Shown here one piece after another: positions 16,701-46,700 of a stretch of DNA of 64,000 nucleotides. Every line of letters starts with the position of its first letter. Positions within the stretch are counted from its first letter, which is position 1. The notes under the pieces were generated by a model. The model was not told where the DNA came from. It searched no databases and saw only the letters and a list, made by a program, of their open reading frames with translations. The translations under genes and the position numbers were made by a program. The stretch lies in NCBI GenBank assembly GCA_020137815.1, contig CM035361.1, forward strand, positions 6,448,001-6,512,000, given 5' to 3'. The DNA is from Hormiphora californensis. Its lineage: Eukaryota > Animalia > Ctenophora.

Positions 16701-19700
16701 AACCCCCCTGAGGAACCAGCCCGATATTGGTGAGCATGTCTACTAGACATTATCTACTAGACATTATATCTACTAGACATTGTCTACTAGACATTGTCTA
16801 CTAGACGTTATCTACTAGACATTATCTACTAGACTTTATCTACTAGACAATGTCTAGACATTACAGACCATAGACAATATACTATCACCTATAATAATAG
16901 AGATGGCACAAGAAATGGGCCGGCCTAAGAATTTAGGTGAGAGAGGGATGTACATAGGGCCGGGGGAGTACCACTATAATTTCAGCGTGACACCTGCCCC
17001 ACACCAAACCTAGAACAGAGCCACTAATGACACCATGATGTTAAATTGTAGGGGTGGCACTGCACAGTAAACTAGGTTTATCTCTATCATAAGAGGGAAG
17101 TGTCGTACCTAAGCAAATGACAAATTGGCCTTCTTTTGAGAGTGGGAAAATATTTAGAGAGTTCCTCCAACATTCTATTCCGTCCCCTCTCAATTTATAC
17201 TTCACTCTCTCTAATCATCTCTCTAATCATCTTTTATCATGAAACGTTCGTAACCTTGGAAAATTGTATTCTTTGTATTTTATTCTCTAAACTCATCTCT
17301 TTATTTTCAGCGGAGTGCTACGACAACACCACTGACCCTAAGATGGAGTTGTATAAGGGATTTACCAATCGAACCAAATCAGGGGCAGTTTGTCAATCGT
17401 GGGCAGCACAAAAACCAAACAAACACCAGCATAAGTTAGAGTAAGTTAGAAATTAATTAACAAACAAACACCAACATTTAAGCTAGAGTAAGTTGGATAA
17501 GACAATTAGTCAAACAAATAATCACTAACATCAGTGAGTTGGACATTAAAGTGTAGGAAACTACTTACAAATCATTAATAATCATGACGTGGTAAAACTC
17601 GAGATGACATTGCCGTTAACTTTACCACATGGGATTGTGGGTCCGGGTGGTTCAGGCGCATTAGCCCAGTTCAAAATATGTTTAGAACACTGATCAGATA
17701 AATTCTATCCGGTGTCCGTTTCTAATATCAATATATCATTTCACCTCCATTTCTAATATAATAGACTTATCTTACAGAGCATCTTCATGCGGCTCATAAA
17801 CATTTGGCCAATACAATCTCTGTTACAGAGCAAGTTACAAAGAGTACTTTTGTCCCATGAGGGACCCTCCTAAGTACTTTAAATGGGGAACATAATCGGG
17901 TACTTTTTGTATGAACTACTGTAGGCTCCCATGAGGAACCCTCCCAAAGTTGACCCCTAATGCTTATTGGCCCCTTATAATGCTTACTATAATACCAGGT
18001 CGAGCGAGATGAACTACTGTAGACCCCCATGAGGAACCCTCCCAAAGTTGACCCCTAATGCTTATTGGCCCTTTATAATGCTTATCACCAGGTCGAGCGA
18101 GATGAACTACTGTAGGAATCCTAGTTCTGCTGTGGAGGGGGGTGCGTGGTGTTACACTGCCGATGGTATTGGATCTGAATCGTGTAACATTCCCCCGTGT
18201 GCTAAAGGTAGGTGGAGAGCCTTCCACAATCCAACCTGGTCACACTTTAGAGTTCCAATCTGGTCACACTTTAGAGTTCCACCCTGGTCACATCTGTGTG
18301 GTATAAGCTGTAGACTGTTTGATAGTTCTCTCTACCCCTGATGTATTTCAGAAACCTACTAATGTAATCCTCAGACTAAATTATCGTACCCAACGTACAT
18401 GTCATCGATGGCACACTAGGTCAACTGGTGCAAAGGTCAACAGGTAAACTAGAGGAAGGGACAGAAGAGAAATGGCACATGAGAGAGTTCAATGGTACAC
18501 TTAGAGTAACGGTAACTAGAGTTCCAATGAGCACAGTTAGAGTAACTGGTCAACTGGGGATAGTGTAATCGTTGATTAATTCTTCATCCCACCCCCTGTA
18601 TCCAGAAGGAGATATCAAAATTACTTCCTCAAGTAAATCTGGTCACATCTGTGTGGTATAAGTTGTAAATCGTAAATCTATTTCAGAGTTAACCCAAACG
18701 TACAAATGTCATGGATGGACACAACAGGACAAGGACTGGCAAACGTACACAGGCAAAGGTATAAAAACAGAGAGAGAGAGAGAGAGAGAGAGAGAGAGAG
18801 AGAGAGACAGGAGGGATGGGACAGAGAACGATGGTAAATACTTCCAATACTCAATTGCTGATATGATGTGAATTCCCCGGTTAATCATCTGCTAATTATC
18901 GGCTAATTATCTGCTAATTATCTGCTAATTATCGGCTAATTATCTGCTAATTATCTGTTTTACCCTTTCAGTGTTAAACTACCAATCCCAGACTACAGGA
19001 AACCATATTATATTTACTCGAGAGGGATTCGCAGGTGCTGCTCCTTTTACTGAGATCACAGTTGCACTATGGGTAGGTGGAAATACTGGTCCCTGATTGG
19101 CTAATAACCAGTCACGTGACCTAAATAAGTAGGTGGAACCATGCAGTGAACAGCTCTATACAGTCTACATCAATATTTTCAACAATATTTTTACATTTAT
19201 ATCATAACTTCCAAACCCCATTATACTTTGATCCTTATATAACAGATCAGTTCATCACTAGGTCTACCCGGTAGTAGCGACAGCAGATTTGGTTACCTAT
19301 GGACTGAAAACGGCTGGAGTTGATCGGTTTAAGATCAGTTTGACGGGGGATACGATATCCATGTCTATAAATGAAGCATCATCGAGTAAGACACTTTTTA
19401 AACCCCACTATACTGGTAACAGTATTGTTGTGTTGCCCATTATAATTGACCTGGGAAGTTATCTAACTGTTATGGTAACTGTTATTATACTGGTCCAGTT
19501 GCCTTGCTCGACCCTACAATAACCACAGGTAGCTGTCCCTCGACCCACCCCTACGTCTACCTGAACGGTAACTGGTGCTGCAAATACGGAACGGAGAAGG
19601 TGTATACACCTTCAGGTGTTACCTGTGATGGTGGGCCTATCAGTATTACCAGTACATGCTGTCAGGGTGATAGTTATACGAAGTGCACCAATCCACCCTG

Positions 19701-43700: not shown

Positions 43701-46700
43701 TCTTGTGAATGAGACCACCCTCATGGAGAAGGATACGGGATACTGTCTTGGAGTAAGTAACATTTTTAGGAGGGTGGCCTTGGGGTGAGTGCTTAGGAGG
43801 GAAGACTTGACAGTCATTGGCCTTGGATGAAACGCCATATAAAGGGACATATAATCAGCACCCTGGCCTTGTTTTTTAAGACAAAAGCCGGACAAAAGAT
43901 AGATAGATGATCTATATTTCTCGTTGCCAAGCTAGACTGCAAATGTAAAGGGGGGATTAGGACATAATAAATGTAAAGGGAGGATTAGAACATAACAAAT
44001 TTCCGTAGGTCTCAGGAAAGAAAGGTGTGGACGGCGCTGGTCTCCTTGTTACGGAGGATTGCAGTTCAGTATATTGGTTTGCTACTTGGGAGGCCGGATT
44101 AGGTAACCTGTTCTTCAACACGGACGGCAACAAAGGGTTCTGTGTAGCAGGTGCCAGTGCTACTCCTGTAGAGGACGCCAAGGTGGGTAACCATGGTAAC
44201 CATGATGGTAACCAAGGTGGGTAACCATGGTAACATTTAGTGTAGAGGACGCCAAGGTGGGTAACCATGGTAACCATGATGGTAACCAAGGTGGGTATTA
44301 CAGTTTCATGTTTGTTCTTAAATTACAACAGTTAAAACAATTACACAATGGCAGTTGCTATATCAGCAACAGTTACTAGATCAAAACAGGTGCAAATTAT
44401 TGAGAGTAACTTTAAATTTAGGGACAATTATTAGAGCACCAACACTAACAACGATATATGGTACTAAATCAAATAACACATCTCATCTTCCCCCGCTAGG
44501 CAACTCTGAGAGCCACGTCAACGTGTAATAGCATGGCCAACAATGCGATCTTCAACGTACCAAAAGTAAACCTAGGTAAGAGCTGCAGGAACCGTGACCT
44601 AATCTGGAAATAATGGTCCCTGATTGGCTGATAACCAGTCACGTTACCTAAATAATCTCCCCTCTTTGCCTCTCCATACCAGAATTAGAACATAATGTAA
44701 TCCTCTCCCTACCGAGCAGATCCGAAGAATACGACAAGGGACAGTAGCAAATCTACCAGCTACACGGACACTGTTTACAAGATGACCCAAACAGATGCGT
44801 CAGATGCAGGTCGATACTTCTGCTCTGTTGTCTGCAACGGAAACGCCCTGTGGGCAGGGTTTTCTACTGTGACCATTCTGAGTAAGTGAAAATATCACAT
44901 ATAATATCACATAGTAAAATCCAGTAGGGGACATCAAATTGGCAAGGATTGAAACAAACATTGAGACATGGCAGGTTTAACGACGATTTTCTCAGTAGAG
45001 ATCGGATAAGATTTTCTCATGATGATAACCTCATGATAACCAAATGTATATTTTCAGCTATTAAAACTCAACCGGACACCCTAATCGCCATACCTGTCAA
45101 CGAAAAACAAAAAGTGGAGATTCAAGTCGAGATTCCAACTTCTTTGACAAGTATCGAGTTCCCCTCTGGGTCTGGCATTGATTTCATTGAGCAGGAGAGC
45201 AAGGTGGCTTATCCTGCCTCGAGCCCCTTCGATATCTCTGTAAGTGAGCCCCTTTGATATCTCTGTAAGTGACCCCCTTCGATATCTCTGTAAGTGAGCC
45301 CCTTTGATATCTCTATAAGTGAGCCCCTTTGATATCTCTGTAAGTGAGCCCCTTTGATATCTCTGTAAGTGAACCCCTTTGCTATCTCTGTAAGTGAGCC
45401 CCTTTGATATCTCTGTAAGTGAGCCCCTTCGATATTTCTGTAAGTGAGCCCCTTTGATATCTCTGTAAGTGAACCCCTTTGATATCTCTGTAAGTGAGCC
45501 CCTTTGATATCTCTGTAAGTGAGCCCCTTCGATATTTCTGTAAGTGAGCCCCTTTGATATCTCTGTAAGTGAACCCCTTTGATATCTCTGTAAGTGAGCC
45601 CCTTCTCTGTAAGTGAGCCCCTTTGATATCTCTGTAAGTGAGCCCCTTTGATATCTCTGTAAGTGACCCCCTTTGATATCTCTGTAAGTGAACCCCTTTG
45701 ATATCTCTGTAAGTGACCCCCTTTGATATCTCTGTAAGTGAACCCCTTTGATATCTCTGTAAGTGAGCCCCTTTGATATCTCTGTAAGTGAGCCCCTTTG
45801 ATATCTCTGTAAGTGAGCTAAAACTCCTTGTTTTCAAGTTTCATGTTAGGTTGTTATAAGAACTCTCTTTCTGTCACAGTTGACACATTCTAATCTCCCT
45901 CTTTCTGTCACAGTTGACAACAGTTCTGTCTTCTAATCCCCCTCTTTCTGTCACAGTTGTCAGGGGAGACCACACTAAAGATCTCAGCTAGTTTCCTTAT
46001 GTTCAACACCACCATTCTGGCTGGGAAGAATTACACCATGCGAGTCAACTTCACTGCCATAGCCGGACCAGGAAGCATGATTACGGACACCTTCTTTATT
46101 GTTTATCAGAGTAAGTGGGATGTTCGGTTTTATCACGATCACAACAGAGTTTGTTCACTTTGTAACATCGCCGAGTCGTAACATCGCCGAGTCGTCTATA
46201 ATGCCTGATCAAACTCTGATCCACGTGAGATCACCACAGGGGTCAAAAGAGTTGAGTTTGTTTTGTATTCAACTTGGTGTAATGGTGTGAAAATACTTCA
46301 CAATACTTTTGAACTATTTGTACAGTTTCTGCTCTAATCTGACACTTCTTGATAATCCCAACACAACCCAAACTAAAACACACACACACACATCCATACA
46401 GGCATCCAAAATGAACAAGATTTGATTGTTGGAGTGTACGAGGTTGATACTTTCTGTAACTGTGTTGCTTATAGTGATACGAAGCTGACGCAGGCATGGC
46501 TCTTCAAGGTATATGTATTAGAAAGAAACCACCGTTTTGTGGTTTGATGGGACTTTCCATTCAGTGAATGAGGGATACTGAAACACTATTTTGTTCAAAT
46601 TATATTTGGTGCGAGAAATGGATCTCTAAATAAAATACATTACAGGACAATGATAGAAGTAAACGAATAGCTAGTAGCAGCACATCAACGTACACTGCAG

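Follow-up and report, generated by a model that had tools for sequence, protein, structure and literature searches.

Introduction

Under Patthy's rule, extracellular mosaic proteins arise by exon shuffling of phase 1-1 modules, and in Dscam alternative exons encode halves of immunoglobulin (Ig) domains; the hybrid domain of integrins, a beta-sandwich, is itself inserted in a PSI domain. PMC13114784 reports insertion architectures for 20% of multidomain proteins, with nested cases among them and inserts consistently smaller than their hosts, and PMC9856412 describes, for extracellular adhesion by integrins, a beta-I domain inserted in the hybrid domain and alpha-I domains inserted in the beta-propeller. 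Here we describe a gene lying in 64,000 nucleotides of the ctenophore Hormiphora californensis (assembly GCA_020137815.1, contig CM035361.1, positions 6,448,001 to 6,512,000 of the forward strand; this whole stretch is hereafter the window), in which a complete module with eight cysteines, the 8-Cys module, and a complete three-exon ricin-type trefoil lie inside the phase-1 introns by which a pentraxin-like domain and a V-type Ig domain, respectively, are interrupted. On balance we favor the view that both guests enter the mature protein, which is predicted to be nested. The original prediction made for this DNA had taken an end-to-end arrangement as the norm for shuffled extracellular modules, a premise that is too strong in view of the reported frequency of insertions and of the integrins as an extracellular example.

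The locus shares with the A1-B-A2 insertion architectures of PMC13114784 the interruption of a host by a complete guest, and departs from them in that the trefoil is larger than its Ig host; the text of that paper does not contain the words immunoglobulin, trefoil or concanavalin. It resembles the integrins of PMC9856412 in that an extracellular adhesion protein, here predicted from DNA, carries a ligand-binding guest that interrupts its host. It departs from them in its partners, a ricin-type trefoil being paired with a V-type Ig domain and an 8-Cys knot with a pentraxin-like jelly roll, and in its gene structure, each guest having a separate set of exons, phase 1-1 as a whole, within an intra-domain intron, with no sign of conformational signalling. 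The likeness to Patthy-type shuffling lies in the boundaries mapped here, which are phase 1, and in the partners that the 8-Cys module has elsewhere (kringle, PAN, WSC, SRCR and TSP1), which are typical shuffled modules; the acceptor introns at this locus, however, lie within domains, and the modules would therefore be nested instead of following one another end to end. While domain insertion is known, these host-guest pairs, presumably acquired by shuffling into intra-domain introns, look new, and the arrangement may be described as uncommon yet with precedent. The literature searched yielded no description of this gene, no Cys-knot within a pentraxin and no account of a trefoil within an Ig domain; a search on the complement C3 example likewise returned no paper.

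Results

Gene structure

Pfam profile scans conducted ORF by ORF (130 and 76 open reading frames, ORFs, of the window), together with splice sites that were read directly and then scored as percentiles among all AG/GT sites in the window, delineate a multi-exon gene on the + strand that extends at least from 17.3 kb to 46.1 kb and encodes an animal-type mosaic extracellular protein (Table 1). The domain pieces recognized in the ORF scans are Kringle, Laminin_G_3, Pentaxin, PAN_1, Ricin_B_lectin, V-set and RVT_1. All the mapped module boundaries (kringle, pentraxin-like, Ig, trefoil and 8-Cys) are phase 1, as are the three host introns. In both the pentraxin/8-Cys and the Ig/trefoil pairs, a single open frame runs through the spliced host halves and guest: between the kringle and the third pentraxin-like exon, p3, the chain is free of stops and comprises 277 residues if the 8-Cys exon is included and 214 if it is skipped, and the 14-exon chain 38753-46110, likewise stop-free, comprises 652 residues with the trefoil and 509 without it.

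Table 1. Features mapped in the window, with intron phases at the exon ends (start->end), strand and supporting evidence.
Feature	Position	Phase	Strand	Evidence or remark
Kringle domain, two exons	17311-17440; 18092-18207	1->2; 2->1	+	Pfam Kringle E 1.2e-4, 4.3e-7; splice parse
Pentraxin/LamG-like p1	18972-19072	1->0	+	splice sites
Pentraxin/LamG-like p2	19262-19385 (alternative donor after 19415)	0->1 (alternative also phase 1)	+	splice sites
8-Cys guest exon (189 nt)	19529-19717	1-1	+	phmmer family, splice sites
5'-truncated non-LTR retrotransposon (LINE)	19720-21537		+	RVT_1 E 8e-29; intron right after 8-Cys exon
Pentraxin/LamG-like p3	22215-22387	1->0	+	Laminin_G_3, Pentaxin, PDB pentraxins
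Pentraxin/LamG-like p4	22990-23101	0->1	+	open chain
Pentraxin/LamG-like p5	23370-23468	1->1	+	open chain
Galactose-binding-like block, three exons	23943-24632			further block of this kind
Ig-like half exons, copy 1	A1 35141-35286; B1 36230-36374; C1 36478-36599		+	tandem duplication
Ig-like half exons, copy 2	A2 37082-37227; B2 37522-37666; C2 38753-38874		+	tandem duplication
PAN/apple-like N-half	38998-39211	0->1	+	donor ATT|gtgagc; PAN_1 E 0.053 on ORF, weak
Candidate exon W, 'WSC-like' piece (206 nt)	39401-39606	open in more than one frame	+	uncertain status
PAN/apple-like C-half	39886-39994	1->2	+	splice parse; acceptor 99th percentile
Galactose-binding-like ('F-type') block	40129-40244; 40612-40754; 40880-40952	2->1; 1->0; 0->1	+	splice parse
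Short exon X	42871-42978	1-1	+	no Pfam match
Ig N-half (strands to C, first Cys)	43221-43370	1->1	+	sequence pattern; splice sites
Trefoil t1	43574-43752	1->0	+	Ricin_B_lectin E 7e-5 on ORF, 2.9e-4 on exon
Trefoil t2	44009-44182	0->0	+	splice sites
Trefoil t3	44500-44575	0->1	+	splice sites; end present in P0162
Ig C-half (strands D-G, D-x-G-x-Y-x-C motif)	44720-44881	1->1	+	V-set, PDB, P0162
Exons downstream of Ig C-half	45058-45243; 45964-46110	1-1; 1-1	+	collinear with P0162
Minisatellite arrays, first five	1-1009; 9380-10163; 10663-11379; 15836-16309; 22380-22976
Minisatellite arrays, remaining five	23533-23937; 45221-45818; 49179-50597; 53265-53811; 57974-58554

A ricin-type trefoil probably nested in a V-type Ig domain

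The claim that an Ig domain is split between its two cysteines by a three-exon trefoil with phase-1 outer ends is borne out in the DNA, and of the exon map then proposed the three exons stand while the end of the first, placed at about 43785, has to be moved to 43752, where the donor reads GTAAGT. The introns flanking the trefoil are short (203 nt upstream, 144 nt downstream). Among the AG/GT sites of the window, the acceptors at 43574 and 44500 and the donors at 44183 and 44576 rank at or above the 99th percentile, the donors at 43371 and 43753 are of intermediate rank (about the 95th) and the acceptor of t2 at 44009 is weak (78th). None of the trefoil exons has a start or stop codon of its own.

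Ricin-type trefoils are built from an internal repeat that occurs three times and in every copy bears a Cys pair and, at the Q-x-W position, an aromatic residue. By eye, and with no statistics attached, the spliced translation shows six cysteines forming three pairs, one per third, with W, W and F at the Q-x-W places. The first exon covers positions 47-104 of the 126 of Ricin_B_lectin (PF00652) with 23.5 bits, below the gathering score of 29; single-exon Pfam scans of t2 and t3 gave no match, and sequence searches of the PDB with t1 and t2 gave nothing significant. The trefoil is a candidate sugar-binding module. The termini of beta-trefoils are adjacent, which suits a loop graft.

The V-set of Ig domains is characterized by two cysteines about 55-75 residues apart and a D-x-G-x-Y-x-C motif. 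Once the trefoil is removed, the two Ig cysteines lie about 56 residues apart and a DAGRYFC motif precedes the last strands; the Trp that usually follows the first Cys is missing from the N-half. The C-half matches positions 60-96 of the 109 of V-set (PF07686) with E 0.0019 and 18.8 bits (cut-off 26), and in the PDB it retrieves 467 sequences at E<=10, the best being V domains of polymeric Ig receptors (E 7.2e-5), along with many antibody V domains, matched at positions of about 68-100. A structure prediction with the two Ig halves as separate chains scored 0.28 against a mark of 0.34 and gives no verdict either way.

The closest database protein, P0162 (gene model sb/3470214 of Pleurobrachia bachei, EukProt EP00116), was found by a word-based search with the Ig C-half (E 9.3e-23, 89% identity). 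It starts with the last 14 residues of t3, 13 of the 14 being conserved, runs straight into the Ig C-half and continues through the two downstream exons; 159 of 179 aligned residues are identical to our spliced model and collinear with it, intron 44576-44719 being removed. The junction between the Ig N-half and t1 is predicted from the genomic sequence. Since an Ig C-half following a trefoil makes structural sense only with an N-half upstream, we regard a trefoil nested in a V-type Ig domain as likely, and this is the nest in which we place the greater trust.

An 8-Cys module probably nested in a pentraxin-like domain

The second nest, a pentraxin domain split by a phase 1-1 exon encoding an 8-Cys module, is likewise confirmed in the DNA, the exon lying between p2 and p3. 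The spliced chain of p1 to p5 reads through without a stop, and the frame is kept whether the 8-Cys exon is included or skipped. The sites of this exon (acceptor at the 96th percentile, donor at the 97th) are better than those of the neighboring exons, and the intron upstream of it measures 113 or 143 nt depending on which p2 donor is used.

The identity of the host rests on p3, which matches positions 71-123 of the 151 of Laminin_G_3 (PF13385) with E 5.1e-6 and 27.1 bits, falling short of the cut-off of 27.6, and positions 78-111 of the 194 of Pentaxin (PF00354) with E 0.049 and 13.8 bits against a cut-off of 25. In the PDB all eight matches to p3 are pentraxins (E 0.047-0.89), the matched stretch lying near residues 85-120 of about 205. 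The pentraxin signature is H-x-C-x-[ST]-W-x-[ST]; the corresponding residues of p3 are H-L-A-L-T-W-S-S, where Ala occupies the position of the signature Cys and a Cys immediately precedes the His. With p3 beginning near residue 85 of a pentraxin domain, p1 and p2 together (about 75-85 residues) fit the missing N-terminal part in size. Word-based database searches with the 8-Cys exon and with p3 returned no match, and a metagenome scan with p3 hit a single GC-rich, bacterial-looking contig, whose 31-residue match we discard as chance. We hold it probable that the 8-Cys exon is included within the pentraxin-like domain.

The 8-Cys module family

Comparison with other sequences identifies exon 19529-19717 as a single, full-length member of a conserved family of 8-Cys modules and not as a chance ORF. 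Against 1.84 billion representatives, phmmer retrieved 323 sequences at E<=1e-3, 95 of them at E<=1e-10, with 37-68% identity over essentially the whole exon; most rows cover the query from residue 1-2 to 53-61 of 62. In an alignment of 45 rows, five cysteines (C2, C16, C17, C32 and C43) never vary and the other three (C44, C52 and C57) reach a conservation of at least 90%, and several positions other than cysteines are also invariant or nearly so. The AlphaFold2 model is compact (predicted local distance difference test, pLDDT, 94.9; predicted template modelling score, pTM, 0.77) and matches no PDB structure by Foldseek or VIA-align; with the exon sequence, Pfam gave no match, the PDB sequence search nothing significant and the language-model Atlas search nothing. 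The module occurs alone and often in tandem, with 11 copies in the protein labelled P0001; in 35 scanned of the 150 proteins listed, its partner domains include TSP1, WSC, SRCR, kringle, PAN, C-type lectin, MACPF, LDLa and VOMI. The window holds no other copy. A module so widespread, whose structure is predicted with confidence but resembles no solved one and for which Pfam offers no model, merits separate description.

The PAN-like region, exon W and exon X

The original prediction had proposed four domain-in-domain arrangements and counted on at least three of them; the pentraxin/8-Cys and Ig/trefoil pairs described above hold, and the two considered here, a PAN domain split by a WSC-like module and, more tentatively proposed, an Ig domain split by the whole PAN/F-type block, are not supported. 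Direct splicing from 39211 to 39886 joins the two PAN-like halves in frame and gives six cysteines, the sixth coming from the next exon. Their assignment is itself tentative: the PAN_1 (PF00024) match comes from an ORF that partly reads into the intron, the halves alone have no Pfam match, and comparison of the PAN-like exons with two PAN-bearing proteins was not significant (p 0.05 and 0.52). Among the exons at 24715-25616, which follow the earlier galactose-binding-like block, the first ends one base into a TGT codon, the very split found at the end of the PAN-like exon at 39211.

To read a WSC-like insert here one needs a weak donor at 39192 (GTACAC, score -1.8, 75th percentile) and exon W in phase 2->1, which adds three cysteines and is not a 1-1 cassette; several other in-frame paths through exon W exist, none with uniformly good sites. 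No match to WSC (PF01822) at E<=10 was found in any frame of 39160-39606, nor in the ORFs, nor was any WSC structure found in the PDB, while the same Pfam library detects WSC in P0011, one of the listed 8-Cys proteins, at E 5.8e-17. A PDB sequence search with exon W returned nothing significant, and a language-model search gave a weak lead to ricin-like clusters. The region of exon W is therefore not a demonstrated nest, and the piece is not a WSC module; a full WSC frameshifted over three frames at 39223-39606 was rejected, being supported by no tool. Within 39212-39885 the PAN frame meets a stop at 39256, and no family match is found there. A strong donor at 39305 (GTATGT) and a strong acceptor at 39401 frame an interval of 96 nt, with no open frame entering the donor, and the neighboring frames of 39212-39400 recall the first half of WSC by eye, with no tool support. 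The segment 39212-39400 may be what remains of an older exon structure.

In the fourth arrangement, the Ig-like exon C2 and exon X were to be the N- and C-halves of one Ig domain around the PAN/F-type block. Both exons exist; given that C2 ends in phase 0 and exon X starts in phase 1, they can never have been the two sides of one intron. Exon X has no Pfam match, and its similarity to the C-halves of type B, to the Ig C-half at 44720-44881 and to the end of the earlier galactose-binding-like block is not significant (shuffle p 0.19-0.44), so that neither the end of a galactose-binding-like block nor an Ig C-half is retained as its identity. The F-type block itself had no Pfam match in the ORF scan; its third exon resembles that of the earlier block (24482-24632) with a z of 3.9, a score reached by none of 500 shuffles. 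A further weak galactose-binding-like match (ORF 10146-10295, + strand, E 1.5e-4) lies upstream of the mapped exons.

Duplicated Ig-like half-domain exons

A tandem duplication of 1.8-2.2 kb (34957-36711 versus 36805-38988) has left two copies of each of the exons A, B and C. Among 136 codons compared between the copies, 22 are different, 20 synonymously and 2 non-synonymously, a bias indicating that both copies are under purifying selection and that the gene is functional. Because the phase-0 end of C1 does not fit the phase-1 start of A2, C1 cannot be spliced in frame to A2, whereas the joins C1 to B2 and A2 to B2 are both in frame; C1 lacks a distant partner of the exon X kind, and B2 is its sole in-frame successor. 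This arrangement suggests either alternative N-halves for one C-half or the obligatory skipping of one exon. The likeness to Dscam resides in the encoding of Ig domains by N-half and C-half exons with possible alternatives for the former; unlike Dscam, the locus offers two alternatives and no arrays, and their mutually exclusive use is hypothetical.

Retrotransposon and repeats

The retrotransposon immediately behind the 8-Cys exon, of the non-long terminal repeat class (a long interspersed element, LINE), carries an intact ORF of 600 residues that bears a reverse transcriptase and shares a stop-free frame with the 8-Cys exon upstream (19450-21537). A second, degenerate copy at 62753-63999 (61493-63999 with endonuclease remnants) aligns only from residue 115 of the ORF onward. 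We rejected the 8-Cys piece as a part of the LINE, since at the matching place the fuller copy has endonuclease-like sequence and not an 8-Cys module; a target-site duplication was also sought, and only chance 8-mers were found.

Other repeats accompany the exons. An inverted repeat of 1.4 kb with 93.6% identity pairs 41028-42428, in the long intron before exon X, with 51844-53222. Several introns of the gene hold a short dispersed repeat resembling a miniature inverted-repeat transposable element or a short interspersed element (19085-19125, 26296-26466, 33143-33265, 39680-39780 and 44600-44650), which also surfaces as a recurring peptide in ORF translations of both strands. Long minisatellite arrays, with units of tens of bases that are 88-98% alike, are numerous in the window; several of them are intronic in this gene, and the one at 22380-22976 contains repeats of the p3 donor region.

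Discussion

The arrangement may be accounted for by exon shuffling, recombination having placed a phase 1-1 module in an intron, itself of phase 1, that lay within a domain instead of between domains. The host halves would then re-associate in the folded protein with the guest projecting from a loop, which in the Ig domain would be the one after strand C and in the pentraxin jelly roll the one ahead of the strand with the conserved Trp. We envisage the product as a multi-lectin protein, secreted or at the cell surface, with kringle, pentraxin-like, galactose-binding-like, PAN-like, Ig-like and trefoil parts, whose likely use would be glycan recognition or adhesion, and the inserts could be optional cassettes because both inclusion and skipping keep the frame. 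At this locus, inclusion and skipping of the guest exons alike are what we infer from the DNA.

Several observations weigh against the proposed nesting. Single-exon Pfam matches, RVT_1 excepted, remain under the gathering score, a shortfall we attribute to single ORFs and exons being fragments of domains. Of the host halves that lie ahead of the guests, p1 and p2 have no Pfam match alone and p2 retrieves nothing significant from the PDB, and the Ig N-half likewise has no significant match alone in the Pfam exon scan or the PDB. The p2/8-Cys/p3 junction is in no database protein searched, and one sequencing run bearing the same species label matches only repeats in 16900-26900 and 27000-46900. 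P0162 begins with a Met inside t3 and is silent on the junction between the Ig N-half and t1; being a gene model, it gives the join of t3 to the Ig C-half in the relative as predicted there. The trefoil, with about 143 residues, exceeds its Ig host of about 100 and thereby runs counter to the rule that inserts are the smaller partner. Finally, the 8-Cys module lies inside another domain in none of the 35 proteins scanned.

The last of these points would be expected if the guests served as optional cassettes and most transcripts skipped them, in which case the main isoform would have an intact pentraxin-like and an intact Ig domain and inclusion would be rare, regulated or unproductive. Skipping would preserve the frame in both nests, and a choice between exons seems to be needed elsewhere in the gene, where either C1 or A2 has to be skipped while both are under purifying selection. 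We nonetheless hold this account, the strongest of the alternatives, to be unlikely: the guest exons have intact frames, conserved cysteines and mostly good splice sites, P0162 has the end of t3 ahead of the Ig C-half, and the trefoil could only be skipped by omitting its three exons jointly, as the loss of t1 or t3 alone shifts the frame.

Were the inserts relics or chance ORFs in ordinary introns that never enter a productive mRNA, one might point to the retrotransposon directly behind the 8-Cys exon and to the interval 39212-39885, where the stop, the want of a family match, the weak donor and an exon W whose length is not a multiple of three all agree with a relic. A relic, however, would not be expected to match a large family over its full length with all the conserved residues kept, as the 8-Cys exon does, and the trefoil combines three phase-matched exons and three Cys pairs with an end conserved in Pleurobrachia, so that we rate this reading as very improbable. 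Still less credible is that the guest exons belong to separate transcripts or to nested genes on the same strand, outside the host mRNA, for although P0162 begins within t3, it links t3 to the host C-half and two further host exons, while the guests lack start and stop codons and have phase-1 outer ends that require a phase-1 partner, the introns flanking the trefoil and the one upstream of the 8-Cys exon are short and the window has no second 8-Cys copy.

Preferring the nested protein with its two guests spliced into their hosts, one may go further and picture a comb-jelly recognition protein that joins lectin grafts in Ig and pentraxin loops with a choice among half-domain exons, in other words an independent, Dscam-like combinatorial scheme near the base of the animal tree; we offer this as a speculation with long odds against it. 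If the nested forms are made, phase 1-1 modules have landed in intra-domain introns twice in a single gene, in one case with a guest larger than its host. The gene would then offer a natural experiment on the extent to which Ig and jelly-roll folds withstand the grafting of large modules into their loops, a matter of interest for protein engineering, and would point to a glycan-recognition protein in the ctenophores, a lineage in which little is known of the molecules of immunity and adhesion.

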